64,000 bases of DNA from Escherichia coli (GCF_030384885.1 NZ_CP128613.1); one strand, 5' to 3'. Positions 29,170 through 64,000 are shown, numbered from the stretch's first letter. Program-made: numbers and translations. The notes: generated by a model not told the origin, from the letters alone.

Positions 29170-29350
<181 letters not shown>

Positions 29351-40290: not shown

Positions 40291-40725
40291 CAGTGTTTCT
40301 CCTTTCGCCCGCCAGAGTAAAAAGCAACCGTTTACGTTATTGAAACTGTCTAAACATATGCTCGTGGAGTGCCAGTTTTTGCGAGGAAGGGGAGTTAGAG
40401 ACAGGAATTGCGGAGGCAATCACATAATCGTGGTTAAACCATGAAAATGAGAAGAGAACCTGACAATGGAATTATCTGTAATTTTCTCATATTGATATTT
40501 CATTAATCATTCTGGCATGTCGCACTCTCGCATTTAATCGTTTTTATCTGGATAGCGCTCTTTTGGTCGGCAATGTTGAAATAATGAAAGCGGCACAGAT
40601 TGAGGGGCAATAATTTGAACTCAGTCGCAAAATTATAATTAAAACGGTCATGCTACCTAATATATGCCCGTTTATTGCATCGCGAAATTTGAGAAGACAT
40701 AACTCATTAAATGAAAGGGATGCAA

Positions 40726-42645
40726 ATGAATAAGTTTATCGCTGCTGAAGCTGCGGAATGTATAGGCTGTCATGCTTGTGAAATTGCCTGTGCGGTGGCA
40801 CATAATCAAGAAAACTGGCCGCTGAGTCACAGTGACTTTCGACCGCGTATCCACGTTGTAGGGAAAGGCCAGGCTGCGAATCCGGTGGCCTGTCATCACT
40901 GCAACAATGCTCCTTGCGTTACGGCTTGTCCGGTTAATGCTCTGACTTTCCAGCCCGATAGCGTACAACTGGACGAGCAAAAATGTATTGGTTGTAAAAG
41001 ATGCGCAATCGCTTGCCCCTTTGGCGTCGTTGAGATGGTCGATACGATTGCGCAGAAATGCGACCTTTGTAACCAGCGCAGTTCCGGCACGCAAGCCTGT
41101 ATTGACGTATGCCCAACACAGGCGTTACGGCTGATGGACGATAAAGGGTTGCAGCAGATAAAGGTGGCCCGCCAGCGCAAAACGGCAGCAGGAAAAGCGT
41201 CATCAGACGCTCAGCCATCTCGCAGTGCAGCATTGCTCCCCGTTAACTCGCGTAAAGGCGCAGATAAAATTTCAGCGAGTGAACGGAAAACCCACTTTGG
41301 CGAAATTTATTGCGGGCTGGATCCACAACAAGCGACTTATGAGAGTGACCGCTGTGTTTATTGTGCCGAAAAAGCTAACTGCAACTGGCATTGCCCGCTG
41401 CATAACGCTATTCCGGATTACATCCGTCTGGTACATGAAGGAAAGATTATTGAAGCGGCAGAACTCTGCCACCAGACCAGCTCCTTACCAGAAATCTGCG
41501 GCAGGGTATGTCCACAGGACCGTCTTTGTGAAGGCGCATGTACTTTGAAAGATCACTCTGGCGCAGTCTCTATCGGTAATCTGGAGCGCTACATCACCGA
41601 TACTGCGTTGGCGATGGGCTGGCGTCCCGATGTCAGCATGGTAGTTCCCCGTATCGAAAAAGTGGCGGTGATTGGCGCTGGGCCTGCAGGATTAGGGTGT
41701 GCTGATATCCTGGCGCGCGCGGGAGTTCAGGTTGATGTCTTTGATCGCCATCCAGAAATTGGCGGTATGCTGACTTTTGGCATTCCTCCTTTCAAACTCG
41801 ATAAAACAGTCTTAAGCCAGCGGCGAGAGATATTCACCGCAATGGGAATCGACTTTCATCTTAACTGTGAAATTGGCCGCGATATTACCTTTAGCGATTT
41901 AACTTCTGAATATGATGCAGTTTTCATCGGCGTGGGGACTTACGGGATGATGCGAGCAGATCTGCCGCATGAAGATGCGCCCGGTGTCATTCAGGCTCTA
42001 CCGTTCCTGACTGCCCATACCCGCCAGTTGATGGGATTGCCGGAGTCTGAAGAGTATCCGCTGACGGATGTGGAAGGTAAGCGAGTCGTGGTATTGGGCG
42101 GTGGCGATACGACCATGGATTGTTTGCGTACCTCCATCCGCCTCAATGCTGCCAGCGTGACCTGCGCCTATCGTCGTGATGAAGTCAGTATGCCGGGCTC
42201 GCGTAAAGAGGTGGTCAATGCGCGCGAGGAAGGTGTCGAGTTTCAATTCAATGTTCAGCCGCAATATATCGCTTGTGACGAAGATGGGCGTTTAACTGCG
42301 GTGGGCCTTATTCGTACCGCTATGGGTGAGCCGGGTCCGGATGGACGCCGTCGTCCTCGTCCGGTAGCGGGTTCAGAGTTTGAGCTGCCTGCCGATGTTC
42401 TGATTATGGCCTTTGGTTTCCAGGCGCATGCCATGCCGTGGTTGCAAGGCAGCGGAATTAAGCTCGATAAATGGGGCCTGATTCAAACCGGGGACGTCGG
42501 GTATTTACCTACCCAGACGCACCTGAAAAAAGTCTTTGCTGGTGGGGATGCAGTTCATGGCGCGGATCTGGTTGTCACTGCAATGGCCGCAGGAAGGCAG
42601 GCGGCGCGCGATATGTTATCTCTGTTTGATTCGAAGGCATCGTGA
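40726..42645 (+). CDS. ygfT: Fused 4Fe-4S ferredoxin / GltD-like NAD(P)H-dependent oxidoreductase YgfT (639 aa)
   Basis: N-terminal CxxCxxCxxxCP clusters ([13 protein letters not shown]..., [12 protein letters not shown]) and a C-terminal pyridine-nucleotide disulfide-oxidoreductase fold ([14 protein letters not shown]). Confidence 0.88.
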
Positions 42646-43133
42646 TGAAATCGTTAATTATCGTTAATCCGGCTGATTGTATTGGCTGCCGTACTTGTGA
42701 AGTAGCCTGTGTGGTCGCTCACCTTTCAGAACAGGAGTTGAATGCCGATGTCTTTTTGCCTCGGCTGAAGGTACAGCGACTGGACAGCATCAGTGCGCCG
42801 GTGATGTGCCATCAGTGTGAAAACGCCCCTTGTGTCGGCGCTTGCCCCGTGCAGGCGCTGACGATGGGCGAGCAGGTGGTGCAGGCAAATTCTGCCCGTT
42901 GTATTGGCTGTCAGAGTTGCGTCAGTGCGTGTCCGTTTGGGATGATCACCATTCAGTCGTTGCCGGGGGATACCCGGCAACAAATTGTGAAATGCGATCT
43001 CTGTGAACAGCGGGAAGAGGGGTCTGCCTGCGTTGAATCTTGCCCGACACAGGCGCTGCAGTTGCTTACTGAAAGAGAACTCAGGCGAGTCCGCCAGCAG
43101 CGTATTGTTGCCAGCGGTGAGAATCCTCTCTGA
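42642..43133 (+). CDS. ygfS: 4Fe-4S ferredoxin-type protein YgfS (162-163 aa)
   Basis: Multiple Cys4 ferredoxin motifs ([24 protein letters not shown]); ATGA overlap with ygfT. Confidence 0.87.
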
Positions 43134-50341: not shown

Positions 50342-51117
50342 ACGGCTTCCTCCCCAGCCTGTTGGCAGTCGGCATAAAGGTCGGCTACCAGAACTCCCGT
50401 GATATAGCGTTTATAGGCCACGCTGCCCCGCAAATCTTCCTGCGGGAAAATGGCGTTGGCGACAGCCTGTTCAAGGGCATCGCCTTCCAGGTTTTGTTTT
50501 TCAACATCGTGCAGACGCAGTGCTTTACTGGCCACGCCATCCAACGCAATTCGCATACCGTCGTGATCGGTTAACGCAACGGCTGCCGTTACTACCGTTA
50601 ACCCAGCCTGAGAACGGCTAATTTTGCGAGTCGCACAGGTGCGATACGGATCTTTAATGATGATTTCGGTTAGCAGGCGATCGCATGGGCAGGCCAGGTA
50701 CTCCTCAATTGACAGAGTTTCACCGTTGCCAAAAACCAGTTCGGCATCCAGTGCCAGCAGGACGGGAAGCAGCACCGACTCTTCCTGCCGGGCGGCGATT
50801 TCACCACCAATGGTCGACTGATTACGAATATGGCGAGAGTAGACAAAGCCGAGAGCCTCACGCAGTGCTGCAGGAATAAACCGTGCATCACGCAGTGTTT
50901 GCAAGCGAGACATCGCGCCAATCCGCAATGCACCGTTATCCCAGTCAACCCAGTCCAGTTCCAGATCCTGTAAGGATATGGCAATCTTTTTATCGGTACG
51001 GGTTGGTGTGGCGTTGAGTTTACTGCCTCCGGCGAACCAGACGGCTTCATCCTGGTAGCGGCGCTTCAGTTCCAGCGCCTGTTCGACAGAGTCGGGCCTG
51101 AAAAATTGTTCAATCAT
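50338..51117 (-). CDS. ygfM: FAD-binding subunit of a molybdo-hydroxylase, YgfM (259 aa)
   Basis: CO-dehydrogenase/XdhB-type FAD-binding domain; operon position. Confidence 0.88.
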   Translation of the reverse strand: MIEQFFRPDSVEQALELKRRYQDEAVWFAGGSKLNATPTRTDKKIAISLQDLELDWVDWDNGALRIGAMSRLQTLRDARFIPAALREALGFVYSRHIRNQSTIGGEIAARQEESVLLPVLLALDAELVFGNGETLSIEEYLACPCDRLLTEIIIKDPYRTCATRKISRSQAGLTVVTAAVALTDHDGMRIALDGVASKALRLHDVEKQNLEGDALEQAVANAIFPQEDLRGSVAYKRYITGVLVADLYADCQQAGEEAV

Positions 51118-51167
51118 CTTCTTTCCTTATTTAACCCTCTTCCCTGCGGGAAGAGGGTATTTGTCAT

Positions 51168-52496
51168 TTATGCCAGCGCATCCATCCGACGCCACATAGC
51201 AGCGGCGGCTTTTTGGGCTTGCGCATAAATGGAATCGCAATCGAAGTTAAACTGACGGTCTTCATAGACCATAACGCCGTTGACCATCACGCTGTGGACG
51301 CTGCCTGAACCCATGCCGAAAGCGATATGTCCAGCGATATTGTCTGCCAGCAGTGGCGTCGGCGAGTTGTAATCGCAAATGGTTAAATCGGCTTTATAAC
51401 CGGTTTCCAGCAGGCCAAATTTCGCGCCAAAGTTGCGGCTCATCAGTTCGTTGCCGTTAGACAGAGCTTTGGCAAAGCTGTCAGGCCACAGCGGACCACC
51501 CGCATCGCGATGTTTAAAGAAGGCAAATTTCATCTCTTCAAACATATCTGAACCAATACCGTCCGTACCCAACGCCAGATTGCGGATGTCGCAAAGATGA
51601 TGGTTGTAGCCGACATGGTTGTTCATGTTTGAACGGGCGTTATGCACCAGGAATGCATCACGCTGATTGAGCAACGCGATGTCGTCTTTAGACAGATAAA
51701 GCCCATGAGCGACCAGCGTTTTGCTGTCGATGAGATCGAATTGCGCTAATCGTGCCAGCAGATCTTTGCCGTACCAGTGATGACTATGGGAAACATCGTA
51801 AAGGTCTTCCGCAGCGTGAATATGTAAACCACGGCCTGTGGCTTTCACGGCCTCACGCAGCATTTCCAGACCGGCATCCGGCACAGTAAACGGCGCGTGA
51901 GCACCAATATGAGCTTCTACCAGATACGGTTCAGTTGCCGCTTTCTTCGCATCATCAATCTGACGGGCGAAGCGGATATTTTCCTCTACTCCTTCCTGTA
52001 GTTCTTTAATGCCGTTGTTACGGTCAGTGGTTTCAAAACAGGTCATCGCACGCAAGCCAACTTTTAAAAATGCGTTGCGCAATGTGGAGAGCGACCCGCT
52101 GATATACGCCGGAGAGGCATGGTGATCGATAACAGATGTACAGCCGCTCTTAATCGCTTCCAGTGAACAAATCAGCCCGCTGTAATAGAGCGACTCTTCA
52201 TCAAGGGCGCGATCGAGCCGCCACCAGAGATTTTTCAGCGTTGAAATGAAATCCGGGCAGGGGGCGATGTTTGCCATAATTCCACGGGAAAGCCCCGAGT
52301 AAAAATGGTTGTGCGAGCAGACAATTCCCGGCATCACAATCCGACCATGCATCTCTTTGTAGTTGGCATCGGGGTAGCGTTGCGTCAGCGCATCGCCGAT
52401 AGCGACAATCACATCATTTTCGATGGCGATATCAACGCCTTCCTGCACTTTCGCCGGGTGTAACTGCACTGCGGTGACATTCTTCAGAATCAACAT
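51168..52496 (-). CDS. ssnA: Putative aminohydrolase SsnA (chlorohydrolase/cytosine-deaminase-like, 442 aa)
   Basis: Amidohydrolase metal-binding motif (GIVCSHNHFYS...) and fold. Confidence 0.88.
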   Translation of the reverse strand: MLILKNVTAVQLHPAKVQEGVDIAIENDVIVAIGDALTQRYPDANYKEMHGRIVMPGIVCSHNHFYSGLSRGIMANIAPCPDFISTLKNLWWRLDRALDEESLYYSGLICSLEAIKSGCTSVIDHHASPAYISGSLSTLRNAFLKVGLRAMTCFETTDRNNGIKELQEGVEENIRFARQIDDAKKAATEPYLVEAHIGAHAPFTVPDAGLEMLREAVKATGRGLHIHAAEDLYDVSHSHHWYGKDLLARLAQFDLIDSKTLVAHGLYLSKDDIALLNQRDAFLVHNARSNMNNHVGYNHHLCDIRNLALGTDGIGSDMFEEMKFAFFKHRDAGGPLWPDSFAKALSNGNELMSRNFGAKFGLLETGYKADLTICDYNSPTPLLADNIAGHIAFGMGSGSVHSVMVNGVMVYEDRQFNFDCDSIYAQAQKAAAAMWRRMDALA

Positions 52497-52498
52497 GA

Positions 52499-55400
52499 TT
52501 ACACCTCCACGCGGCCCAGCAGATAATGATGATGCTGGTGGACATGGCTAATGATGCGGCACATATCGTTCAGCTCCGGTGGTACGTTGTTGAACTGACC
52601 TTCGCTGTCGATGTTTAACACCCAGCTTTGGTTATTCAGACGTATGCGTACCTGGCAATCTTCCACAAGGAAGCCTGGGTTGCTGCTGTTATCAAAGTCT
52701 TGCGACAGGCTGAATACGGTGATTTTGTCTTTATATGGTTTACCGTTCCACGGGCAGAACTGGGCGCAGTTGCCGCATTCGTTACAGTAAGCGTCGAGGT
52801 GCAGCGTCTGGAAACGGTTCTGGAATCCAGGGACCGCAATTGAGACATTGGCGCGGTTAGGGCAGACATCCACACACTTGCTGCAAACGTAGTTACATTC
52901 AAGACAGCGAGAAGCTTCCTGAGCGACAAACGCATCACGATCGTCGCTGTTCACCAGGGTGACTGAGATATCGCCTTTACGTTGGTAGATTTCCGCCGGA
53001 TTGACGTTGTTCCAGTATTTATCGTTCTGGTGGGAACGGATATTTTCCCGACTAAGGATGGCATCGGTCGCCCGACGCGCGGTTCCGACAGCAGCGACAA
53101 TGGAGGATGGTCCGCGCTGTACGTCGCCGATCATAAAGACGTCAGTCAGACGAGTTTCGCCATTATGGTCGACGTCTGGCCAGCCGTTTTTGTCCAGCGG
53201 CACGCCCATCGCATTCAGGGCTTCAGTATCCTGCTGTTCACCAATGGCGGTGATCAGGCTGTCTACATGCAGTGTTACTGTTTCGTTGGTTTCAACCGGA
53301 CGGCGACGACCTTTCTCATCAGGTTCGCCAAGCGACATAACGCGCAAGGTTAAGGTGCCATCAGCATCGAAACGTTCCGGATTATTCAGGAAACGGAACT
53401 CCACGCCGTCGTGCAACGCTTCTTCATACTCTTCGCGCCATGCTGGCATCTCTTGCAGTGAACGACGGTAAACGACCGTTGCTTTTTCTACGCCTGGAAC
53501 GCGTAACGCCGCACGAGCGCAGTCCATTGCGGTGTTACCCGCCCCGACAACGACCACATGTTTGCCCAGCTTGAGCGCTGTGCCCTTGTTGTATTCACGC
53601 AGGAAGGGGAGTGATTTCCAGACATTTTGGTTGTCGCCCGCCAGTTTCACACCGCTATTTTTATCAGTGCCGGTGGCAATCAGAACATAGTGGAAGCCCT
53701 GATTTTTTAACTGTTCAACGGTCAGATCGGGTGAGCAGCCATACTCAAATTTCACGCCGTGAGCGGCAACAAAATCGATATCGTGCTGAATTAACTCTGC
53801 AGGAATACGGAACTGAGGAATGATATTTTTCACCACGCCGCCCGCATTGGCTTCGCGTTCAAACAGCGTAACCGGATGGCCCGCTCTGGCAAGGAAGTAA
53901 CCTGCTGCCAGACCCGCCGGACCTGCACCAATCACGGCAACTGGATGGCGTGAACCAGAACCGGCTGGTTTGTGCCAGCGTTGCTTATATTCATCCCAAC
54001 CTTTTTCCAGCGCGACTTTTTTCAGTTCGCGGATATTCAGCGCACTGTCGTAATCCAGGCGGGTACAGTTGTATTGGCACTGGTGATCGCAAATATGACC
54101 GGTAATGGCGGGCAGGGCGTTGCGTTGGTAGATGAGTTCCAGTGCGTCGGCATAGCGGTGTTCGCCAAGCAGACGTATGTATTCCGGAATATCCTGTTTA
54201 ATGGCGCAAGCAGTAACGCACGGTGCAACGTAGCAGTCGGTCAGCGGCAGGTCTTCTGCCACTTCAATACGCTCTTCTGGCTTCCAGTGTTTCTGAGTGT
54301 ATTCCATGGTTAACGCGTCTGCTGCCAGTTTGTTCAGTCGTTCGACGTCAACATGGTCAAGCCCCCAGGCGTCGGAGCCTTCCAGCTCGCGCATGCAGGC
54401 ACTTAAGCGCAGATAGCCGCCAGGTTTCAGCAGGTCGGTTGCCATAGTAATAGGGCGAATACCAGTATCAAAAATATCGCGGATAGTCAGCTGACTGGCA
54501 CCACCGGAATAAGAAATGGGCAGTTTGCCGTCAAAGGCGCGAGAGAGAACTGCTGCAACATTGATGGAGAGCGGGAACAGCGCACGGCCTGACATATACA
54601 TCTCTTCACCAGGCAGTGCGCCTTTATTGTTGATGGTGCCGAGAGTGTTAGTCAGTTTTACGCCAAAGCCGAGTGATTTTTCTTTTGCCAGTACCATCAG
54701 GCGTTCCAGCATTTCCAGCGCTTGCGTCAGCTTGAGGTCGTGATCAAATGACTCTTCTTTTAAGCCTATGTAACCGAAACCGCAGACATCGAGGATCTCA
54801 CGAACACGCGCGTACCCCAGTAAGGTCGGGTTGAGTTTCACAAAGGTATTGAGCCCTTTTTCTTCCAGCATGTAGCGGCAAATGGCTTCGATTTCATGCG
54901 GAGGACAGCCGTGCATCGTGGAGAGGGTAACGCCTTGTACCATGCTGGTGGGGATGCGTGCCGGTAAGGCCTGCAAGCATTCGCGTTTTTCCTGTAAGCC
55001 GTGGCGGGCTAAAAATGCGTCATCCTGGAGTAATTCATTCAGCGTATCGCGATATTGAGCGAATTTCGGATGGTCAGATGCGTCCATCATATTGTCGATG
55101 AACTGTTGCATCGGCGGTTGCTTAATACCTTCGAGGTTGTAACCGACGCTCATATTAAAGATGAACGATTTACCGGAATCAGAAGGCTGGAACATCGCTT
55201 CGAGAAGGTGCAGGGCAAACCAGGCTTTGAGGTATTCATCCCAGGCTTTAAGCAGGGTAAATTCGGTGGACCATTCGGTGTTAAAGCACTCGTCTTCGGC
55301 ATCAATACAGGGCTTTTCCAGCTCCAGGCGGTCAAGAATTTGGACGGTTTTTAGTTCGATGAAGCGTCCGCCAGTCAGCCAGGATGTGACAATATTTTGC

Positions 55401-55597
55401 GCGAGCTGCGTGTGCGGACCAGCGGCAGGGCCGACGGGAGTGGCACAGGTTTCACCGAAGACGCTAATAGTTTTACCTTTTACGGGTGAGTAAAACTGTT
55501 GCTCGGGAATACCAAAGATTGAGCGTTGTTGTTGGTATTCATCAAATATGCGCGTCAAAAGTTCCTCAAACGGAATGGGACGCATAATATCCCCCAT
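52499..55597 (-). CDS. ygfK: Large Fe-S/flavin oxidoreductase YgfK (GltD-like plus dihydropyrimidine-dehydrogenase-like and ferredoxin domains; putative selenate-reductase-associated, 1032 aa)
   Basis: 1032-aa ORF with pyridine-nucleotide disulfide-oxidoreductase GxGxxG motifs ([14 protein letters not shown]) and C-terminal Cys clusters. Confidence 0.88.
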   Translation of the reverse strand: MGDIMRPIPFEELLTRIFDEYQQQRSIFGIPEQQFYSPVKGKTISVFGETCATPVGPAAGPHTQLAQNIVTSWLTGGRFIELKTVQILDRLELEKPCIDAEDECFNTEWSTEFTLLKAWDEYLKAWFALHLLEAMFQPSDSGKSFIFNMSVGYNLEGIKQPPMQQFIDNMMDASDHPKFAQYRDTLNELLQDDAFLARHGLQEKRECLQALPARIPTSMVQGVTLSTMHGCPPHEIEAICRYMLEEKGLNTFVKLNPTLLGYARVREILDVCGFGYIGLKEESFDHDLKLTQALEMLERLMVLAKEKSLGFGVKLTNTLGTINNKGALPGEEMYMSGRALFPLSINVAAVLSRAFDGKLPISYSGGASQLTIRDIFDTGIRPITMATDLLKPGGYLRLSACMRELEGSDAWGLDHVDVERLNKLAADALTMEYTQKHWKPEERIEVAEDLPLTDCYVAPCVTACAIKQDIPEYIRLLGEHRYADALELIYQRNALPAITGHICDHQCQYNCTRLDYDSALNIRELKKVALEKGWDEYKQRWHKPAGSGSRHPVAVIGAGPAGLAAGYFLARAGHPVTLFEREANAGGVVKNIIPQFRIPAELIQHDIDFVAAHGVKFEYGCSPDLTVEQLKNQGFHYVLIATGTDKNSGVKLAGDNQNVWKSLPFLREYNKGTALKLGKHVVVVGAGNTAMDCARAALRVPGVEKATVVYRRSLQEMPAWREEYEEALHDGVEFRFLNNPERFDADGTLTLRVMSLGEPDEKGRRRPVETNETVTLHVDSLITAIGEQQDTEALNAMGVPLDKNGWPDVDHNGETRLTDVFMIGDVQRGPSSIVAAVGTARRATDAILSRENIRSHQNDKYWNNVNPAEIYQRKGDISVTLVNSDDRDAFVAQEASRCLECNYVCSKCVDVCPNRANVSIAVPGFQNRFQTLHLDAYCNECGNCAQFCPWNGKPYKDKITVFSLSQDFDNSSNPGFLVEDCQVRIRLNNQSWVLNIDSEGQFNNVPPELNDMCRIISHVHQHHHYLLGRVEV

Positions 55598-55918
55598 AAC
55601 CCTCTCCTTAGCTTATACAGATATCATTGAATGACCGGTGTTGAGAAATCCGGTGGTTTACGGGGATAGAGCAACAATCGCACCACTCTTGCCAGGTTTA
55701 GTGGGAAATATAAAAAAATGTGAGGCGGCTCGAAACTTAAGGGCTTTTTGTGAATGAACTCACAGGTGCCAAATGAGAATTAAAATCACTCCTGAAAATT
55801 ATTATTACCAGCCCATTTATCACTTTTTCTCTTTTCTCAAAATCAGTGATTCCTTATCATAATGATAAAGAAGGCTGGATGGTTTAAATATTTGAACGCA
55901 AACGTTTAACTACGTTTT

Positions 55919-56497
55919 CTAAATTTCAGTATACCTTTTTTGCGCTGTAATAAAGTCGTCCGGAGTATCAATATCTAAAATTATTTCTGCATTTTCTATT
56001 TCGACGGAATAATGTTCTCCCATAAGGAGTGCCTGACGCATATTGGTGACATTGGGTCGCTGGGTTGCCTGCATCAGGCATGGCTTTGACACTAAAATCG
56101 GATGGCCGGGGATACCTTTATGGAGTGGCAGTATTGAGCCATCATTACGTAACGACCAGATTTTTCTAAAAATATCGATGGTGAGGGTTGGCATGTCACC
56201 GTGGGTGAGAAAACAATGTTCGGTTTGCACCGCGGGTACTGCGGCCTTTACTGATGTCAGTAAACCCTGCGCATAATTTGGGTTGTGGATAATAGTGATA
56301 TTACTCTGGTTCGCATAACGTTCGTGCAGTTCATTACCACGATAGCCGGTGACTAAAATAATTCGGCTACAAAACTGCAACGCATTTTTGATACTTGCAT
56401 CAAGAATTGTTCCCTCTTGCCAGGGTAACATCATTTTCCATTGCCCCATTCTTGATGATAATCCGGCAGCGGTAATTATACAGTCGATGGCTGACAT
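55919..56497 (-). CDS. mocA: Molybdenum cofactor cytidylyltransferase MocA (YgfJ, 192 aa)
   Basis: MobA-like nucleotidyltransferase N-terminus (AIDCIITAAGLSSRMG). Confidence 0.88.
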   Translation of the reverse strand: MSAIDCIITAAGLSSRMGQWKMMLPWQEGTILDASIKNALQFCSRIILVTGYRGNELHERYANQSNITIIHNPNYAQGLLTSVKAAVPAVQTEHCFLTHGDMPTLTIDIFRKIWSLRNDGSILPLHKGIPGHPILVSKPCLMQATQRPNVTNMRQALLMGEHYSVEIENAEIILDIDTPDDFITAQKRYTEI

Positions 56498-56599
56498 AGT
56501 GGTTCCATTATTTATAGGGGCTAATAACGCCTGATAATTGCGTTACTTCCTGATGGATTAAGTTGGGGATAATTTATCCCAGAGAGGTCATAAAGACTC

Positions 56600-57370
56600 G
56601 TGAAAAGTATAGTTGACCCATCGGCATTATTCATTGATTTAGGCGCGCAGAAACGTCCCACTGTGATTTCTGTTGTTGGGGCTGGGGGGAAAACCAGCTT
56701 GCTTTTTTGGCTGGCAGAACTGCTCCAGGCTAGCGGCAGGCGAGTGTTAATCACTACGACGACACATATGTTTATGCCAACGTCTCACTGGCCCGTGGTT
56801 TTCTGTCGTGATCCCGCCATGCTTCCTCATGCGTCTCTTACATCCCCCATTTCATTTTGTTTTCACAGCTGGAAAGCGAACCAGGGAAAAGTGCAGGGAT
56901 TTATGCCAGAAGCGATTGATGCACTGGTGCAACGACCAGAGTGTGACGTAATTCTCATTGAGGCAGATGGCTCGCGTGGAATGCCGTTAAAAGCGCCTGA
57001 TGAGCACGAACCTTGCATACCCAAAAGCAGTTGCTGCGTGATTGCTGTGATGGGAGGACATATTTTGGGTGCGAAAGTGAGCACAGAAAATGTCCATCGC
57101 TGGTCGCAGTTTGCTGATATTACCGGGTTAACACCTGATGCAACCTTGCAACTGAGCGATCTCGTTGCGCTGGTTCGCCACCCTCAGGGCGCATTTAAAA
57201 ACGTACCGCAAGGTTGTCGGCGAGTCTGGTTCATTAACCGTTTTTCTCAATGTGAGAATGCGATTGCGCAAAGCGAGCTCCTTCAACCGCTGCAACAACA
57301 CGACGTAGAGGCAATCTGGCTGGGCGATATACAAGAACATCCTGCAATCGCGCGCAGATTTGTGAATTAG
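56600..57370 (+). CDS. yqeC: YqeC, marker protein of selenium-dependent molybdenum hydroxylase loci (256 aa)
   Basis: P-loop-like VVGAGGKTS; pairs with yqeB. Confidence 0.85.
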   Translation: MKSIVDPSALFIDLGAQKRPTVISVVGAGGKTSLLFWLAELLQASGRRVLITTTTHMFMPTSHWPVVFCRDPAMLPHASLTSPISFCFHSWKANQGKVQGFMPEAIDALVQRPECDVILIEADGSRGMPLKAPDEHEPCIPKSSCCVIAVMGGHILGAKVSTENVHRWSQFADITGLTPDATLQLSDLVALVRHPQGAFKNVPQGCRRVWFINRFSQCENAIAQSELLQPLQQHDVEAIWLGDIQEHPAIARRFVN

Positions 57371-57417
57371 CGGCCCGGGTATTCCGGGTTACTGAAAGGA
57401 TATCCATTGAGGTTGGT

Positions 57418-59042
57418 ATGAATATTTTCACAGAGGCTGCAAAACTTGAAGAGCAAAATTGTCCGTTTGCGATGGCGCAAATTGTTGATAGCCGAGGCTC
57501 GACTCCCCGCCATTCTGCACAAATGTTAGTGCGCGCCGATGGTTCTATCGTCGGTACAATTGGTGGTGGAATGGTTGAGCGGAAGGTGATTGAAGAGTCG
57601 CTTCAGGCATGCAGGAACGTAAGCCGCGATTATTCCATGGACGTATGGCTCGTAACGGTGTGGATGCTGTCGGGTCAGATTGTGGAGGTGCAATGTCCGT
57701 GTTTATCAGCGTCCATGGTATGCGTCCTCGTCTGGTGTTGATTGGCGCGGGGCATGTCAATCGGGCGATAGCCCAGAGTGCGGCGCTATTAGGATTTGAT
57801 ATTGCCGTTGCCGATATTTATCGCGAAAGCCTTAATCCTGAATTATTCCCATCATCAACCACGCTTCTCCATGCTGAGTCGTTTGGTGCGGCAGTGGAAG
57901 CACTGGATATTCGCCCTGATAATTTTGTCCTGATTGCCACGAATAATCAGGATCGTGAAGCCCTCGACAAACTCATTGAACAGCCCATTGCATGGCTGGG
58001 GTTGCTGGCAAGTCGCCGCAAGGTTCAGCTTTTCCTACGTCAATTGCGTGAGAAAGGCGTGGCTGAAGAACATATTGCCCGTTTACATGCGCCCGTTGGT
58101 TACAACATAGGTGCGGAAACGCCGCAGGAGATCGCCATCAGCGTGCTGGCAGAAATATTACAGGTGAAAAATAACGCGCCGGGTGGGCTGATGATGAAAC
58201 CTTCTCATCCTTCCGGACACCAGCTGGTGGTGATTCGCGGTGCGGGGGATATCGCCAGTGGTGTGGCGCTACGTCTGTATCATGCGGGTTTTAAAGTGAT
58301 CATGCTGGAAGTGGAAAAACCGACAGTGATTCGTTGTACCGTGGCGTTTGCCCAGGCCGTGTTCGATGGCGAAATGACGGTCGAAGGCGTCACTGCCCGC
58401 CTGGCAACCAGCTCTGCGGAAGCGATGAAACTTACCGAACGCGGATTCATCCCTGTGATGGTAGATCCCGCCTGTTCATTGCTTGATGAACTGAAACCGC
58501 TTTGCGTGGTGGACGCTATTCTGGCGAAACAGAATTTGGGTACGCGGGCAGATATGGCACCAGTAACAATCGCGCTTGGGCCGGGCTTTACTGCTGGGAA
58601 GGATTGCCATGCGGTAATTGAAACAAATCGCGGGCACTGGCTCGGTCAGGTGATTTACTCTGGTTGTGCGCAGGAGAATACCGGTGTTCCCGGCAATATT
58701 ATGGGGCATACCACCCGACGGGTGATCCGTGCTCCTGCTGCAGGCATTATGCGATCCAACGTGAAATTAGGCGATCTGGTGAAAGAGGGCGATGTGATTG
58801 CCTGGATTGGTGAGCATGAAATTAAAGCACCGTTGACGGGGATGGTGCGTGGCTTGTTGAACGACGGACTGGCGGTGGTCGGTGGTTTTAAAATTGGTGA
58901 TATCGATCCACGTGGTGAAACGGCTGATTTCACCAGCGTTTCTGATAAAGCCCGGGCAATTGGCGGCGGCGTACTTGAGGCGTTAATGATGTTGATGCAT
59001 CAGGGCGTTAAAGCGACAAAAGAAGTGCTGGAAGTGGCTTAA
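57418..59042 (+). pseudogene. yqeB: XdhC-family molybdo-hydroxylase maturation protein YqeB, reading frame interrupted in this sequence (N-terminal 107-aa ORF and 477-aa ORF in different frames)
   Basis: XdhC N-domain (MNIFTEAAKLEEQNCPFAMAQIVDSRGSTPRHSAQMLVRADGSIVGTIGGGMVERKVIEESLQA) is in frame 1 and stops at 57741; the rest (RKPRLFHGRMARNGVDAVGSDCGGAMSVF..., Rossmann LVLIGAGHV...) is in frame 0, open from 57594. The span is 1625 nt, one short of the 1626 nt needed for a single 541-aa reading frame. Confidence 0.55.
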
Positions 59043-59047
59043 ATGAA

Positions 59048-59080
59048 AATGGCCGGATGGTATTACCCACCCGGCCTTTA
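59048..59080. terminator. Hairpin between convergent yqeB and yqeA (probable bidirectional terminator)
   Basis: GGCCGGATGGTATTACCCACCCGGCC inverted repeat flanked by A/T. Confidence 0.55.
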
Positions 59081-59082
59081 AA

Positions 59083-60015
59083 TTACTGACAAATCACCGT
59101 TCCGGTTTTGCCTTCAATCCCTTCTTTCGCTTTGCTCAATACGGTAATCAGTGCTTCGCGTCCAGCGCGAGAGCGAGCAAACGAGGCGGCTGCTTCCACT
59201 TTAGGCAGCATAGAACCTTTCGCAAAATGACCTTCTTCGATAAAGCGTTCAGCATCACTTAATGACAGGCGATCGAGCCACTGTTCGTTCTCTTTACCGA
59301 AGTTAATGGCCACTTTTTCTACCGCAGTCAGAATGATCAGCATATCGGCATCAATCATTTCTGCTAAACGGGCGCTGGCCCAGTCTTTATCAATAACCGC
59401 GCTGGCACCACGCAGATGGTTACCTTCACGAATAACAGGAATACCACCACCGCCAACGGTGATCACTACCTGGCCTGCATCTACCAGAGCTTTAACCGTT
59501 TCTTTTTCAATGATATCAACCGGTTTTGGCGAGGCAACAACACGGCGATAGCCGCGACCAGCATCTTCTTTCAGAGTGTAACCCTGTTTTGTCAGTTGCT
59601 CGGCTTCCTGCTCGGTAAAGAACGAACCGATCGGCTTGGTCGGGTTGAGGAATGCCGGATCGTTAGCGTCGACTTCGACCTGGGTAACCAGCGTTGCTAC
59701 AGGTTTATTAATGCCACGAGAAAGCAGTTCTTCTCTTAAGGCGTTTTGTAGATCGTAACCAATATAACCCTGGCTTAAGGCAACACAGACAGACATCGGC
59801 AGCATTGGCGAGTGCGCTTCAGTTTTTGCCGCGGCTTCAAAGGCCTGGTTAATCATGCCTACCTGCGGCCCGTTACCATGAGTGACGATGACCTCATGTC
59901 CCTGGGCAATTAAATCAACAATTGCCTGAGACGTAATTTTTACCGCTTTCATTTGTCCGGCTAGATCGTCGCCCAGCGCATTCCCGCCCAGGGCGAGAAC
60001 AATTTTCTTACTCAT
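59083..60015 (-). CDS. yqeA: Carbamate kinase-like protein YqeA (310 aa)
   Basis: Amino-acid kinase family, ArcC-like N-terminus (MSKKIVLALGGNALG). Confidence 0.9.
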   Translation of the reverse strand: MSKKIVLALGGNALGDDLAGQMKAVKITSQAIVDLIAQGHEVIVTHGNGPQVGMINQAFEAAAKTEAHSPMLPMSVCVALSQGYIGYDLQNALREELLSRGINKPVATLVTQVEVDANDPAFLNPTKPIGSFFTEQEAEQLTKQGYTLKEDAGRGYRRVVASPKPVDIIEKETVKALVDAGQVVITVGGGGIPVIREGNHLRGASAVIDKDWASARLAEMIDADMLIILTAVEKVAINFGKENEQWLDRLSLSDAERFIEEGHFAKGSMLPKVEAAASFARSRAGREALITVLSKAKEGIEGKTGTVICQ

Positions 60016-60062
60016 TTTTCCTCACTCATCATTCTTGATTGTGTATAGATCCCTGGCAGTGG

Positions 60063-61448
60063 TTAGAGCACGGGAGGGACAAACGGTTTGCGTCGCAGGA
60101 AACGACCTCGCCCGGCTTTACCTGTAAAGGTGCCGTCACAGAAAATCGTTTCACCACGGGATAATGTTCTGACAATTGCGCCCTGACAGGTAAAACCCTC
60201 CCAGGGCGAGTAGTCGGCGTTGTCGTGGAGATGGCGGTGTTGAATTTGTTGACTCTGACGTGGGTCGATAATTACCACATCACCATCTGAGCCGGGCGCT
60301 AATAATCCTTTTTGTGGCCACAGGCCAAATAGCCTGGCGGGCATCGCACTGGTCAATTCAACAAAACGCTCCGGTGTGATACGTCCCGTCATCACGCCAC
60401 TGGAGAACAGCAACTGCATGCGGTTTTCCACACCGGGCAAGCCATTTGGGCAGCGGCTGAAATCGCCTTTAGAAATTTGCAGGCGTTGAGCCATCGAGAA
60501 GGTGCAGTGATCGGTCGCCACCACGTCAATCGCACCATCACTAATGCCACACCACAGTTTGTCCTGCTCACGCACGTTACGCAGTGGTGGGCTAAGAATG
60601 AACTTCATGCCGTCTTCTGTATCGTAACTGCGTTCGTCCAGCAGGAGATATTGCGGGCAGGTTTCAACCCAGACTGGCTGGTGATTCGCGCGGGCAAGAC
60701 GCAGATAATCCAGACCTAAGCCGTTAGAGAGGTGGACGATATAGAGCGGGGCGTTACCGGCAATTTGTGCCAGGTTAATCATGCGTGCGATGGCTTCCGC
60801 TTCGCATTCCAGAGGGCGACTCAAGGCGTGATAGCGCGGCGCGGTTAACCCTGCGGCGATAAACTCCGCCCGCTTGCTGGCGATAGCTGCATCATTTTCC
60901 GGGTGCACGGTGGTCAGCGCGCCGGACTCATGCAAGCGGCGTAACGCCTGCAAAACCTCGTCATCGTTGAGTTTGTATTGATAGGTTAAATAGAGTTTAA
61001 AACTGCTCAGTCCTTCTTCGACCATCATCGGAATTTCGTCGAGGATGGCGTGATTAATGTGCTGGATAACACCGTGAAAGCTGTAGTCAATAACCGCTTT
61101 ATGGGCGGCATAACCACGATAAACTTCCAGTTGATGGCGTAATCGGCAGCCATTTGGTCCAAATCCCATATGGTCAATAATGGTTGTTGTACCGCCACAC
61201 GCAGCTGCGCGGGTACCGGTAAAAAAATCATCACAACTGCGCGCGATGCCGACATCAATATTGAAGTGTGTATGGACATCTACGCCGCCAGGGAAAACGT
61301 AACAGCCAGTAGCATCAATTTCTTCATAAGGGAGCTGCGGCGAAATATCGGTGCCCAACTGGCGAACAATCCCGCTTTCAATCAGCAAATCCTGTTTGGC
61401 TTGTCCATCTGCGTTAACGATAGTGCCGTTTTTGATCAATACGCGCAT
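60063..61448 (-). CDS. hyuA: D-phenylhydantoinase / dihydropyrimidinase-like cyclic amidohydrolase HyuA (YgeZ, 461 aa)
   Basis: Begins MRVLIKNGTIVNADGQ; metal-binding GGVDVHTHF motif. Confidence 0.9.
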   Translation of the reverse strand: MRVLIKNGTIVNADGQAKQDLLIESGIVRQLGTDISPQLPYEEIDATGCYVFPGGVDVHTHFNIDVGIARSCDDFFTGTRAAACGGTTTIIDHMGFGPNGCRLRHQLEVYRGYAAHKAVIDYSFHGVIQHINHAILDEIPMMVEEGLSSFKLYLTYQYKLNDDEVLQALRRLHESGALTTVHPENDAAIASKRAEFIAAGLTAPRYHALSRPLECEAEAIARMINLAQIAGNAPLYIVHLSNGLGLDYLRLARANHQPVWVETCPQYLLLDERSYDTEDGMKFILSPPLRNVREQDKLWCGISDGAIDVVATDHCTFSMAQRLQISKGDFSRCPNGLPGVENRMQLLFSSGVMTGRITPERFVELTSAMPARLFGLWPQKGLLAPGSDGDVVIIDPRQSQQIQHRHLHDNADYSPWEGFTCQGAIVRTLSRGETIFCDGTFTGKAGRGRFLRRKPFVPPVL

Positions 61449-61500
61449 AGCAAACTCCAAAAACCCTCCGGCGAACCGGAGGGGAATAAGTTAAGAATAA

Positions 61501-62712
61501 TTATTCGGTTGCCAGCCAGCTTAACGGGATTGCAGCGTACATAGCGGCACAGGTCACCAGGTGAGATTTCCAGGTTTTTTCGTTAGGTGCGTGCGCTTCA
61601 GGTTCTTTACCAGGGCCAAAACCGATCACCGGAATGCCGTGACGACCCATGATGGAGACGCCGTTAGTTGAGAAGGTCCACTTATCAACAACCGGCGCTT
61701 TGCCAAACAGCCCTTCGTAGGCATTCACCAGTGCTTTAACAGTGAAGTGATCTTCTTCCACTTTCCAGGTCGGGAAGTAGCATTCGGTTGGGTAAACCAG
61801 GCCAGTCCAGGACGGACGGTCGTAGTTGTACATAGAAACAACCGCGTTAGCTTTCTGTACCGCAGGCAGGGCGCGGATTTCGTCCAGCGCGCCTTCCCAG
61901 GTTTCGCCCCAGGTCAGACGACGGTCAATTGAAACTGCGCAGCTGTCTGCTACAGCGCAACGGCTTGGAGATGTGAAGAAGATTTCAGAAACGGTGAGGG
62001 TGCCTTTGCCGAGGAATTCGTCATAGCCCAGGCGCTGGGAGAGTTCCTGCAATTCGCCAAGAATCGGACCCATTTTGAAAATGGCGTTATCACCGCGCTC
62101 TGGCGCAGAGCCGTGGCAGCTAACGCCCTGAACATCAATGCGAATTTCCATACGACCGCGTTGACCACGATATACCTGGCAGTCGGTTGGTTCGGTACTG
62201 ACCACAAATTCCGGGCGAATGCCAGATTGTTCAATAATGTACTGCCAGCACAGACCGTCGCAGTCTTCTTCCTGCACAGTGCCGGTGACCAGCAGGGTGT
62301 ATTCATCTTCCAGACCGAGGTCTTTAATGATTTTACCGGCATAAACCATAGATGCCATGCCGCCTTCCTGGTCGGAAGTACCACGGCCGCCGATCAGCTC
62401 ATCAGTTTCCATGCCTTCGTACGGATCGAAGTCCCAGTTTTTGATGTTGCCAATGCCGACGGTGTCGATATGCGCGTCCATCGCCACCAGACGCGGGCCG
62501 TGACCGATATAACCGAGCACGTTGCCCATCGGGTCGATTTCAACTTTATCGAAGCCGACTTTTTCCATCTCTTCTTTAATACGATGTACTACGCGTTTTT
62601 CATCGCAGCTTTCACTGGGAATAGCAACCATATCGCGCAGAAAGCGAGTCATGTCTGCCTGGTAATCTTTTGCTTTTTCAAGAATCAGTTTGAATGGAAT
62701 ATTCTTAGCCAT
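61501..62712 (-). CDS. ygeY: M20-family peptidase / amidohydrolase YgeY (403 aa)
   Basis: ArgE/DapE/CPG2-type metallopeptidase fold and motifs. Confidence 0.88.
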
Positions 62713-62769
62713 TATTTTTCTCCAGATTTTTTACTCCCCGTTTGGCGGGGAGCAGTTCCAATAGGGTGA

Positions 62770-63966
62770 TTAAGGTGCTACAGAGTGTTTGCCTTCCCAG
62801 ACAACTTCGCGGTAGTGCTTCACGTCGGTGTCGCCTTCAGTGCTGATAACCAGCACCACTGCATCTTTGTTCAGCGCCAGTTTTTCCATCAGGCTTTGAC
62901 GTTGCGGGTGATAATGAACCGCCGCGAGAACGCCTAAACCGACAGCGCCGGATTCACCGGAGATGATGCGCGGGTCGTTGCCGTACGGATTACCCAGCAC
63001 GCGCATACCTAATGCGGCAACGCTGTCCTGGCAGGAGATGAATTGGGTGGCGCAGTTACGTAGGATTTCCCAGCCCAGTGGGTTAGGTTCGCCGCAAGCC
63101 AGGCCCGCCATGATAGTGGCCATATCGCCGCCAACGTTGACGATGTCGCCTTTGACACCAGAACGATAGATACAGTCAGCTTTGTCAGGTTCAACAATAA
63201 TGCTGTGCAGATTTTGCGGGCTGTAGACGTCGACCAGATAACCCAGTACGCCGCCGGCCATCGCGCCGACACCGGCTTGCAGCAGAACGTGTGTTGGGGT
63301 TACGCCCATTTCACGCATTTGCTCGACGGCTTCATCTGCCAGAGTGGCATAGCCCTGCATGATCCAGGTTGGGATTTTGGTGTAGCCTTCCCAGGCGGTA
63401 TCTTGCACCACTTCCCAGCCGTGTTGCTGCGCGTGTTGCATGGTCAGACGAACGGTATCGTCATAGTTCATATCAGTGACGATGCACTCGGCTCCGAGGT
63501 TCAGAATGGCGTCAACGCGTTCCTGAGCGGAACCTTTCGGCATGTAAATTACCGCGTTCTGACCGAGTTGCTGTGCTGCCCAGGCAACACCGCGCCCGTG
63601 GTTGCCGTCGGTCGTTGTAGCAAATGTCATTTTTTCGCCGATGGCACTTTTCAGATGCTCGAATGACAGTGTTTCGATATCAAGATGATATTTTTCGCAC
63701 AACAACTGAGCGATGGCATATGCGCCGCCGAGCATTTTGAATGCGTTCAGACCGAATCGTTTTGATTCGTCCTTAACGAGAATTTTTTTCACCCCAAAAA
63801 GGTTTGCGAGATCGTCCAGCGCGCAAAGTGGTGTTGGGCGATAGCCAGCAATTTTCTGGTGGAACTGGCGCGCCAGTTTTGCCTGGCTTTGCGAAAAGAG
63901 CGGTGATGTTTCGCCGTTGAAAAATTTGTTATCGGCGATATCAATCTTCAATGAGAAAACGGACAT
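62770..63966 (-). CDS. ygeX: 2,3-diaminopropionate ammonia-lyase (PLP-dependent, 398 aa)
   Basis: PLP fold-type II sequence; begins MSVFSLKIDIADNKFFNGETSPLFSQSQAKLARQFHQKIAGYRPTPL. Confidence 0.9.
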   Translation of the reverse strand: MSVFSLKIDIADNKFFNGETSPLFSQSQAKLARQFHQKIAGYRPTPLCALDDLANLFGVKKILVKDESKRFGLNAFKMLGGAYAIAQLLCEKYHLDIETLSFEHLKSAIGEKMTFATTTDGNHGRGVAWAAQQLGQNAVIYMPKGSAQERVDAILNLGAECIVTDMNYDDTVRLTMQHAQQHGWEVVQDTAWEGYTKIPTWIMQGYATLADEAVEQMREMGVTPTHVLLQAGVGAMAGGVLGYLVDVYSPQNLHSIIVEPDKADCIYRSGVKGDIVNVGGDMATIMAGLACGEPNPLGWEILRNCATQFISCQDSVAALGMRVLGNPYGNDPRIISGESGAVGLGVLAAVHYHPQRQSLMEKLALNKDAVVLVISTEGDTDVKHYREVVWEGKHSVAP

Positions 63967-64000
63967 ATCCTATCCTTTTGGCCTCTGGAAATAGAGAGCC

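Follow-up and report, generated by a model that had tools for sequence, protein, structure and literature searches.

The minus-strand segment at positions 59083–63966 very probably forms the distal four-fifths of the ygeW-ygeX-ygeY-hyuA-yqeA unit, the lower half of the anaerobic uric-acid pathway. It lies in the window, the whole stretch of 64,000 nt that was analysed, which is Escherichia coli chromosome and barely differs from strain 2013C-4282. The system is not new: its pathway was worked out and rebuilt in vitro in two papers from 2025 (Liu et al., bioRxiv 10.1101/2025.04.24.650524; Li et al., Life Metab, PMC12507026), both summarised by an independent commentary. An earlier synteny-based prediction had tied the ygeW–yqeA cluster to purine catabolism. 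Gene identity, gene order, active-site motifs, purifying selection and synteny were established for this strain, and the enzymatic steps are predicted from published work on the K-12 proteins.

An ORF search identified four co-directional, tightly spaced minus-strand ORFs that exactly fill the segment, and the RefSeq annotation of the closest genome (100% identical over 59000–64000) contains the same four genes. In transcript order they are ygeX/dpaL (62770–63966, 398 aa), encoding a PLP-dependent 2,3-diaminopropionate ammonia-lyase; ygeY (61501–62712, 403 aa), encoding an M20 metallohydrolase of the ArgE/DapE type; hyuA, also called ygeZ (60063–61448, 461 aa from the ATG), encoding a cyclic amidohydrolase/D-hydantoinase; and yqeA (59083–60015, 310 aa; RefSeq name arcC), encoding a carbamate kinase. 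Gaps of 57, 52 and 47 nt separate successive genes. The longest hyuA ORF reaches a TTG at 61460; the RefSeq start is the ATG, with a GGAG 8–9 nt on its 5' side. The ORFs, the NCBIfam scores and the RefSeq annotation confirmed the four co-directional genes reported by the initial annotation, whose gene list follows the transcript order of lyase, M20 hydrolase, hydantoinase and kinase, whereas the order in its title does not.

Family membership was assigned by comparing NCBIfam profile scores with curated cut-offs, and all four proteins passed. YgeX matched TIGR03528, diaminopropionate ammonia-lyase, with 650.7 bits (cut-off 532.25), shared 396 of 398 residues (99.5%) with the E. coli DAPAL crystal structure 4D9G and retained the PLP-binding Lys77 within an NAFK motif; its activity and mutant phenotype have been described (Liu et al. 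2025). YgeY, which contains Peptidase_M20 (PF01546) and M20_dimer (PF07687) domains, scored 721.6 bits against TIGR03526, the YgeY family (cut-off 321.5). Its metal-binding and catalytic motifs AHID, SDQEG, QEED and TEPT (H81, D114, E148/E149 and E174) align with E. coli ArgE 7RSF, and a C-terminal His ligand is predicted from an EAHAPNE motif. The nearest solved structures are the deacylases ArgE and DapE, with an E value of only about 1e-16.

HyuA scored 673.1 bits against TIGR02033, D-hydantoinase/dihydropyrimidinase (cut-off 393.25), and aligned over its full length with D-hydantoinase 1YNY (E = 4.6e-109). The binuclear-metal motifs DVHTH (H59/H61), SFKLY (Lys at about 150–151), VHPEN (H182), VHLS (H239) and TDHC (D313) were all present. 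YqeA scored 385.6 bits against TIGR00746, the arcC equivalog of carbamate kinase (cut-off 358.25), matched Enterococcus carbamate kinase 1B7B (E = 5.5e-90) and contained the amino-acid-kinase motifs GGNAL, HGNGPQVG and DKD.

These assignments also bear on the possibility of a different ureide fermentation, either reductive pyrimidine catabolism, with a dihydropyrimidinase and a ureidopropionase-type hydrolase, or an anaerobic allantoin/oxalurate route, with an oxamate carbamoyltransferase and a carbamate kinase. The best HMM of HyuA carries the name dihydropyrimidinase and allantoinase models also match this protein, but the allantoinase score was below the cut-off (254 vs 358). The E. coli allantoin genes, the allB/allC/arcC cluster, are located at a different locus. 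The pairing of a carbamoyltransferase with a carbamate kinase follows arginine deiminase/oxalurate logic, an analogy also drawn by Liu et al. (2025); however, neither the pyrimidine nor the allantoin/oxalurate route has a use for a diaminopropionate lyase. Furthermore, the compounds identified as intermediates were diureido and diamino C3 acids derived from urate, with none of the classic Clostridium purine intermediates detected (Liu et al. 2025). Such a fermentation thus appears exceedingly improbable.

The module was present in 5174 of 5426 complete E. coli genomes. Compared with three other E. coli lineages, each gene showed 26–78 nucleotide differences, nearly all at third codon positions, and only 0–5 amino-acid changes; ygeY showed no amino-acid change against 45–66 synonymous differences. 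The four genes are under strong purifying selection. Outside E. coli, YgeY was 82–91% identical in Salmonella, Aeromonas, Mixta, Erwinia, Shewanella, Photobacterium and Vibrio. Aeromonas, Mixta and Shewanella keep the order of a sigma-54 activator followed by OTCase-family (at the ygeW position), PALP, M20, amidohydrolase and AA_kinase genes, and their clusters adjoin YgfK-like or XdhC/YqeC genes.

The conserved arrangement argues against the reading current in annotation before 2023, in which four adjacent genes have separate and unrelated jobs: HyuA as a D-phenylhydantoinase for exogenous 5-aryl-hydantoins, YgeX as a detoxifier of free diaminopropionate, YgeY as a peptidase or deacylase and YqeA as a spare carbamate kinase. 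RefSeq retains 'D-phenylhydantoinase' and 'YgeY family selenium metabolism-linked hydrolase' as product names, and the distant deacylase structures nearest to YgeY fit this reading as well. Aryl-hydantoins are said to have been the only substrates first found for HyuA, reportedly by Kim et al. in J Bacteriol in 2000. Against it stand the gene order, which together with ygeW and ygfK/ssnA-type neighbours is retained in distant gamma-proteobacteria, and co-regulation, with ygeW, ygeX, ygeY and hyuA listed together in one YgeV iModulon. It is also contradicted by mutants that accumulate consecutive intermediates and by sequential reconstitution in vitro, in which each purified enzyme hands its product on to the next step (Liu et al. 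2025; Li et al. 2025). We consider unrelated jobs very improbable. The lack of any shared intermediate, which the initial annotation had named as the result that would speak against a common pathway, was addressed by these experiments with the opposite outcome. Published data likewise oppose deletions of hyuA, ygeY, ygeX or yqeA that would leave anaerobic consumption of urate or 2,8-dioxopurine, the build-up of intermediates and the ATP yield unchanged, inactivity of purified HyuA, YgeY or YgeX on ureidomethyl-hydantoin, mono-ureido-diaminopropionate and diaminopropionate respectively, and a YqeA that makes no ATP from carbamoyl phosphate.

The pathway to which the module very probably belongs is the anaerobic reductive degradation of uric acid through 2,8-dioxopurine ('yanthine'), reconstituted stepwise from urate to pyruvate with E. 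coli proteins, every enzymatic step being shown (Liu et al. 2025; Li et al. 2025). By analogy with these proteins, XdhD–YgfM would reduce urate to 2,8-dioxopurine, YgfK, a flavin/Fe-S reductase, would reduce and dearomatise the 2,8-dioxopurine ring, and SsnA would open the six-membered (pyrimidine) ring to yield 5-ureidomethyl-hydantoin, the substrate of HyuA. HyuA would then open the hydantoin ring of this compound (also 5-ureido-dihydrouracil) to form 2,3-diureidopropionate. YgeW is expected to remove one ureido group by phosphorolysis with release of carbamoyl phosphate, with which YqeA would phosphorylate ADP, giving ATP and carbamate, a substrate-level phosphorylation yielding one ATP per urate. 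YgeY would hydrolyse the other ureido group, on a mono-ureido-diaminopropionate, to give 2,3-diaminopropionate, and YgeX would complete the pathway by converting the latter to pyruvate and two NH3. The two 2025 papers differ on the mono-ureido intermediate, given as albizziin or as 3-amino-2-ureidopropanoate.

The proposal in the initial annotation that the four activities serve a single ATP-yielding fermentative ureide pathway matches the published genetics and the reconstitution with E. coli proteins; the substrate, which it held not to be evident from sequence, is now published as uric acid via 2,8-dioxopurine. The ATP yield it expected holds at the level of the pathway, as YgeW and YqeA of E. 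coli form ATP from 2,3-diureidopropionate (Liu et al. 2025), but not for the four genes alone: hydrolytic M20 cleavage gives carbamate and carbamoyl phosphate comes from YgeW, the sole supplier of the carbamate kinase, which it had missed.

The E. coli K-12 cluster matches the segment in gene content, gene order and chromosomal position, and a K-12-like strain carries YgeY and YqeA proteins identical to those of the window, under the same accessions (WP_001107125.1 and WP_000037992.1). At synonymous sites, the window allele differs from that of most E. coli by about 3–6%. K-12-like strains contain a 180-bp REP-like insertion between yqeA and yqeB that the window lacks; unlike the K-12 cluster, the window shows a unique frameshift in yqeB, and ygeW falls past its edge.

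Three other systems resemble the module. The arginine deiminase pathway (ArcA-ArcB-ArcC) shares its logic, in which a carbamoyltransferase phosphorolyses a ureido group and carbamate kinase makes ATP. That pathway uses citrulline, whereas the substrate here is the urate-derived 2,3-diureidopropionate, and the carbamoyltransferase of the E. coli module is of the knotted YgeW type, unlike that of the arginine deiminase pathway. Neither arcA nor arcB occurs in the window or the 29-kb locus, and RefSeq's naming of yqeA as 'arcC' reflects family membership alone. In the 'hydantoinase process' and the PydA-B-C route of reductive pyrimidine catabolism, a cyclic amidohydrolase likewise opens a hydantoin or dihydropyrimidine ring before an amidohydrolase removes the N-carbamoyl group, and HyuA fits the D-hydantoinase/dihydropyrimidinase model of those systems. 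The module differs from them in that the decarbamoylating enzyme is an ArgE/DapE-type M20 protein with its own family (YgeY), the ring substrate bears a second ureido group, and one of the two ureido groups leaves by phosphorolysis rather than hydrolysis. The uricolytic cluster of Clostridioides difficile (UacX, UacY) has the HyuA, YgeY and YgeX steps in common with E. coli (Li et al. 2025). There, the D-aminoacylase homologue UacY stands in for YgeW and YqeA; it is hydrolytic and that step therefore brings no ATP, whereas the E. coli-type module keeps the energy-conserving version.

The upper-pathway genes xdhD-ygfM, ygfK and ssnA are all present within the window. From ORFs and the RefSeq annotation of the closest genome, the minus strand carries xdhD-ygfM (47471–51117), a molybdenum hydroxylase at the pathway entry (function from Li et al. 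2025); the amidohydrolase gene ssnA (51168–52496) and the flavin/Fe-S reductase gene ygfK (52499–55597), both with functions from Liu/Li 2025; and mocA (55919–56497), a molybdenum cofactor cytidylyltransferase. The plus strand carries yqeC (56600–57370), a selenium cofactor biosynthesis accessory gene. At 38842–43133 lie uacT on the minus strand, for a urate/H+ symporter, and ygfT-ygfS on the plus strand, for formate-dependent uric acid utilisation. Further purine-pathway neighbours in the window or closest genome are xanQ and guaD, and xdhABC lies just past the window edge in the closest genome.

A further reading gives YgeY and its neighbours a direct part in selenium metabolism, which the family name 'selenium metabolism-linked hydrolase' suggests and which draws on co-occurrence with yqeB, yqeC and SelD-dependent molybdenum hydroxylases (cf. 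Haft & Self 2008). In vitro, however, what YgeY itself hydrolyses is a ureido group (Liu et al. 2025; Li et al. 2025), and no selenium-containing substrate or product of YgeY has been reported. The selenium link of the family is indirect because the first pathway enzyme is a selenium-dependent molybdenum hydroxylase, and we assign a direct role in selenium metabolism a negligible probability.

The window ends 34 nt 5' of the ygeX ATG, and ygeW, the promoter region and ygeV fall outside it. The genome identical over 59000–64000 has ygeW as the first gene of the unit, with its stop about 58 nt upstream of ygeX, and this carbamoyltransferase gene adjoins ygeX in all other loci examined; this strain is therefore predicted, from the near-identical genome, to carry ygeW and its promoter. 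The closest genome has a sigma-54-like site, TGGCACACTTATTGTT, some 95 nt upstream of ygeW, although the locus as a whole showed no enrichment of the sigma-54 pattern beyond chance (24 matches vs 19.8 expected). The five genes are probably transcribed from a sigma-54/YgeV-dependent promoter upstream of ygeW.

The short hairpins that the initial annotation placed between some cistrons were present at two of the three internal junctions, all on the minus strand. The stem-loop after ygeX (62732–62754) starts 15 nt past the stop and has 9 bp, a 5-nt loop and an A-rich 3' side without a U-tract (dG −17.5, z −3.2; 2 of 200 shuffles fold as well). In other E. coli lineages its stem carries a C-to-U change, with a G.U pair kept on the sense strand only. 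A terminator scan found a terminator-like stem-loop after ygeY (61464–61483), directly 5' of the hyuA Shine-Dalgarno, with 8 bp (7 G-C), a UUCG loop and a UUUUU tail (dG −18.5, z −2.9). Its stem is invariant in four E. coli lineages, and hairpins of different sequence occupy the ygeY–hyuA junction in Aeromonas (z −3.5), Mixta (z −3.4), Shewanella (z −3.3) and Salmonella (z −1.8). The hyuA–yqeA junction, when folded, gave no structure (z +0.5). Between the convergent yqeA and yqeB, a strong intrinsic terminator follows yqeA (59051–59076; 10 bp, 8 G-C, tail ATTTTCATTT), which folds on both strands (dG −22.6, z −5.3 on the minus strand; −16.7, z −3.7 on the plus strand). A further hairpin of 11 bp lies between ssnA and ygfM (51134–51158; dG −19.9, z −4.85).

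GC-rich hairpins directly behind the stop codons of ygeW, ygeX and especially ygeY, and behind ssnA, keep their position but not their sequence in E. coli, Salmonella, Aeromonas, Mixta and Shewanella, and may be functional. We infer that the GC hairpins after ygeW, ygeX and ygeY tune read-through or the stability of the mRNA and do not fully isolate the cistrons from one another. The ygeY hairpin may serve as a partial terminator or protect an mRNA end, and its presence could indicate that hyuA-yqeA and ygeWXY do not simply share one transcript; with its U-tail beside the hyuA ribosome-binding site, it could also act as an attenuator.

The accessory gene yqeB (57418–59042, plus strand), a marker of selenium-dependent molybdenum cofactor maturation, is frameshifted, whereas yqeC is intact. 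A 1-bp deletion near 57609 (GGCATTGCAGG to GGCATGCAGG, compared with NZ_CP027579.1) shifts the frame after about residue 64 and leads to a premature stop at 57741, leaving two overlapping ORFs in different frames. The deletion is unique to the window: 4859 complete E. coli genomes contain this stretch, and not one of them has it. Either a true mutation or an error of sequencing could account for it. YqeB is believed to be required for maturing the selenium-dependent molybdenum enzyme that starts the pathway; should the frameshift be real, urate may supply the module of this strain with no substrate. The frameshift bears on pathway function in this strain, not on the identity of the four genes.

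Two separate readings, one in which the hairpins form a conserved functional layer of uricolytic operons and one in which the yqeB frameshift marks a natural mutant, are offered tentatively and seem to us rather doubtful. If the first is true, the hairpins, as partial terminators or 3'-end protectors, could set the ratio of the early enzymes YgeW/X/Y to the late enzymes HyuA/YqeA. If the yqeB deletion is real, the strain would be a natural mutant with the lower module cut off from urate.

The four co-directional genes proposed in the initial annotation were confirmed on the minus strand, where their open reading frames fill window positions 59083-63966 exactly. The ORF listing placed ygeX at 63966-62770 (398 aa), ygeY at 62712-61501 (403 aa), hyuA at 61460 or 61448 to 60063 (465 aa with a TTG start, 461 aa with an ATG start) and yqeA at 60015-59083 (310 aa). 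The internal spacers were 57, 52, and 47 nt, and a Shine-Dalgarno (SD) sequence was present for each gene. For hyuA, the TTG start at 61460 was dropped because the RefSeq start is the ATG at 61448, which is properly spaced from a GGAG motif. The order of lyase, M20 enzyme, hydantoinase, and kinase agreed with the earlier gene list but not with the title given to the module.

All four proteins passed the curated cut-offs of their NCBIfam models. The scores were 650.7 bits against a cut-off of 532 for YgeX (TIGR03528, diaminopropionate ammonia-lyase), 721.6 against 321.5 for YgeY (TIGR03526, YgeY family), 673.1 against 393 for HyuA (TIGR02033, D-hydantoinase/dihydropyrimidinase), and 385.6 against 358 for YqeA (TIGR00746, carbamate kinase). 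The Pfam domains were PALP (ygeX), Peptidase_M20 with M20_dimer (ygeY), Amidohydro_1 (hyuA), and AA_kinase (yqeA), and all expected catalytic and metal-binding motifs were kept. YgeX was identical to the E. coli DAPAL structure 4D9G at 396 of 398 residues, HyuA aligned over its whole length with D-hydantoinase 1YNY (E = 4.6e-109), and YqeA matched the Enterococcus carbamate kinase 1B7B (E = 5.5e-90). YgeY had no close relative among solved structures, and its top match was ArgE 7RSF (E = 7.6e-16). The window belongs to the E. coli chromosome, and positions 59000-64000 were 100% identical to the nearest genome, E. coli strain 2013C-4282 (NZ_CP027579.1), in which RefSeq labels the matching stretch dpaL (ygeX), ygeY, hyuA, and arcC (yqeA), in agreement with these assignments. 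The name arcC could suggest an arginine deiminase operon; this reading was dropped because arcA and arcB were both absent.

The window ends 34 nt upstream of the ygeX start codon. In the nearest genome, the carbamoyltransferase gene ygeW ends with its stop codon 58 nt upstream of ygeX. Divergent from ygeW is ygeV, which codes for the sigma-54 activator, and xdhABC is next. The initial annotation saw four of the five genes of the unit ygeW-ygeX-ygeY-hyuA-yqeA; ygeW itself and the control sequences are past the window edge. On the other strand, downstream of the module, are yqeB and yqeC, followed by mocA, ygfK, ssnA, ygfM, and xdhD, and further by xanQ, guaD, ghxQ, ygfS/ygfT, and uacT.

The system is already known, with the E. 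coli operon in print and the pathway published in 2025. The unit ygeW-yqeA and ssnA had been tied to purine catabolism by 2013 in a synteny study, and the uric-acid pathway was set out by two independent 2025 studies using genetics, isotope tracing, and purified E. coli proteins. The pathway begins with XdhD-YgfM, which reduces urate to 2,8-dioxopurine; YgfK and SsnA convert 2,8-dioxopurine to ureidomethyl-hydantoin, HyuA opens this ring to give 2,3-diureidopropionate, YgeW with phosphate forms a mono-ureido product, and YgeY and YgeX convert that product to pyruvate (Li et al., PMC12507026). The same scheme was reached by Liu et al. (bioRxiv 10.1101/2025.04.24.650524), who rebuilt the route from urate to pyruvate by stepwise enzyme addition with a yield of about 50%. 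ATP was formed from 2,3-diureidopropionate, ADP, and Mg2+ with E. coli YgeW plus YqeA, and with neither enzyme alone (Liu et al.). Inferred from the published scheme, the yield per urate would be pyruvate, four NH3, and two CO2, with one ATP made at the YgeW/YqeA step, and pyruvate can be a source of further ATP.

The proposal of an ATP-yielding fermentative ureide pathway therefore matches the published genetics and purified-protein reconstitution, with one correction concerning ygeW. M20 hydrolysis does not supply the carbamate kinase, because its product is carbamate; YqeA is supplied by YgeW, which the initial annotation did not see.

The order in which the two ureido groups are removed was considered next to the families of the enzymes. 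ArgE/DapE enzymes target N-alpha-acyl groups, and in N-alpha-acylated diamino acids the distal nitrogen is the site used by the YgeW-related acetyl- and succinyl-ornithine transcarbamylases. According to a commentary, the YgeW/YgeY removal order is disputed between the two studies. In one, YgeW takes the 2-ureido group to leave albizziin and YgeY takes the 3-ureido group (Li et al., PMC12507026), whereas the opposite order, with 3-amino-2-ureidopropanoate as the intermediate, was reported in the other (Liu et al., bioRxiv 10.1101/2025.04.24.650524). By analogy, the ArgE/DapE and ornithine transcarbamylase families would both favour Liu et al., and the D-aminoacylase analogy for UacY would favour Li et al. 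These family analogies conflict, and therefore sequence by itself does not settle the choice between 2- and 3-ureido removal.

Short hairpins had been described between some cistrons, and these were found at two of the three internal junctions. The hairpin after ygeX (62732-62754) had a 9-bp stem and no U-tract (dG -17.5 kcal/mol, z -3.2). The hairpin after ygeY (61464-61483), immediately upstream of the hyuA SD, had an 8-bp GC stem, a UUCG loop, and a UUUUU tail (dG -18.5 kcal/mol, z -2.9). The hyuA/yqeA spacer had no structure (z +0.5), and a 10-bp terminator followed yqeA at 59051-59076 (dG -22.6 kcal/mol, z -5.3). A hairpin was also present in the ygeW-ygeX spacer of the nearest genome, of which the window holds only the last 5 nt. 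Separately, a perfect 11-bp hairpin (51134-51158; dG -19.9, z -4.85) was observed in the 50-nt ssnA-ygfM spacer, and therefore the upper-pathway operon has intercistronic hairpins too.

Two stem substitutions were seen in E. coli, one in the ygeX hairpin and one in the ygeW-ygeX hairpin. Both form G.U pairs on the sense strand and would be A.C mismatches on the antisense strand. In other genera, unrelated GC hairpins occupy the same junctions. The ygeY hairpin was the most consistent (z -3.5 in Aeromonas, -3.4 in Mixta, -3.3 in Shewanella, and -1.8 in Salmonella), the ygeW hairpin was strong in Aeromonas (-4.8) and Shewanella (-4.7), and the post-ygeX hairpins were weaker outside E. coli. An Rfam scan of the whole window found no known RNA family in 59-64 kb, and thus the hairpins correspond to no catalogued element. 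Membership of ygeW, ygeX, ygeY, and hyuA in one YgeV iModulon is an argument that transcription reads through the ygeY hairpin. The hairpins are candidate partial terminators or 3'-end stabilisers that may tune relative expression.

The yqeA-yqeB spacer was short in the window (59043-59082) and in two other lineages, with 40 nt and one copy of the terminator hairpin. K-12-like strains such as USML2 (comparison locus L003, 144-363) have an insertion of 180 bp, REP/BIME-like, at this site between the two convergent genes; a copy of the terminator hairpin GGCCGGGTGGGTAATACCATCCGGCC stands on either side of the insertion.

A sigma-54-like site with one mismatch (TGGCACACTTATTGTT) was located outside the window, in the ygeV-ygeW spacer of the nearest genome, some 95 nt ahead of the ATG of ygeW. 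Across the 29-kb locus the pattern showed no excess over chance (24 matches, 19.8 expected), and this site is therefore a lead rather than a result. A sigma-70 promoter scan of 58900-64000 gave three weak sites against 4.5 by chance, so that internal promoters were unsupported.

Compared with three other E. coli lineages, the module genes had 26-78 nucleotide differences per gene, almost all at third codon positions, and only 0-5 amino-acid changes; YgeY had 45-66 nucleotide differences and no amino-acid change. This pattern and the spread of the module are evidence for a functional, conserved unit. The module stretch was found in 5174 of 5426 complete E. coli genomes. YgeY was 82-91% identical in Salmonella, Aeromonas, Rahnella, Mixta, Erwinia, Arsenophonus, Shewanella, Photobacterium, and Vibrio. 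Aeromonas, Mixta, and Shewanella keep the sigma-54 activator beside the order carbamoyltransferase, PALP lyase, M20, amidohydrolase, and amino-acid kinase, with XdhC/YqeB-like, YqeC, MocA-like, or YgfK-like genes adjoining.

The module is missing from about 5% of the complete E. coli genomes. One example is strain 100416 (locus L010, 7155-9084), with IS1B at a deletion running from inside ghxQ to ygeX that removes guaD, xanQ, xdhD, ygfM, ssnA, ygfK, mocA, yqeC, yqeB, yqeA, hyuA, ygeY, and ygeX and leaves ygeW intact. A Salmonella enterica contig (GCA_005424755.1; locus L006, 4937-17049) carries ygeV-ygeW-ygeX-ygeY-yqeA with a short ygeX (316 aa) and a 1.47-kb gap between ygeY and yqeA in which no hyuA gene was called. 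Its neighbours are HipA/HTH, KfrA_N, and Phage_GPA genes, and it resembles a decaying copy carried by a mobile island.

The uricolytic region (47500-64000) was at least 99% identical to just 2-4 complete genomes and about 4-6% divergent from most E. coli, with about 1000 genomes below 95%. In the gcv region, by contrast, all 5425 matching genomes were at least 95% identical. Possible reasons are that the lineage is rarely sampled, or that the locus has more diversity or recombination; the strain itself is rarely sampled, and the identity bands are too coarse for a decision on recombinant import.

Over 64 kb, the window differed from NZ_CP027579.1 by just four substitutions and two single-base indels. 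One indel is a 1-bp insertion at 13212 in the hairpin downstream of rpiA (GGGGGAATCTCCCCC versus ...CCCC), and with this insertion the stem becomes perfect. The sole Rfam matches in the window, all on the minus strand, were SIB RNA, antitoxin to the toxin ibsC (14892-15042), 6S RNA (ssrS; 15691-15874), and naRNA4, a REP-derived nucleoid-associated RNA (29178-29255); these are ordinary E. coli features far from the module.

The other indel is a 1-bp deletion near 57609 (GGCATTGCAGG to GGCATGCAGG), which splits yqeB (57418-59042) into two overlapping ORFs, with the frame shifted past about residue 64 and a stop at 57741. The deletion was absent from all 4859 complete E. coli genomes carrying the stretch. 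YqeB is a marker of selenium-dependent molybdenum cofactor maturation; the C. sporogenes enzyme requires SelD, and purine-dependent growth of C. difficile requires YqeB. The deletion may be a strain-specific loss of a maturation gene or, equally, a sequencing error. If real, urate may fail to enter the pathway in this strain, and the frameshift could be a natural test of the E. coli need for YqeB.

The window supplies a further E. coli allele of an operon already in print and adds no new biology for the pathway. The position-conserved intercistronic hairpins and the actual ygeW-yqeA transcript structure lie outside the published descriptions and, together with the disputed order in which the ureido groups leave and the frameshifted yqeB, hold a modest residual value. 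The pathway itself is important: with it, gut Enterobacteria, and many anaerobes, clear urate secreted by the host and gain both pyruvate and ATP, and probiotics against hyperuricaemia and gout are being engineered to carry it.
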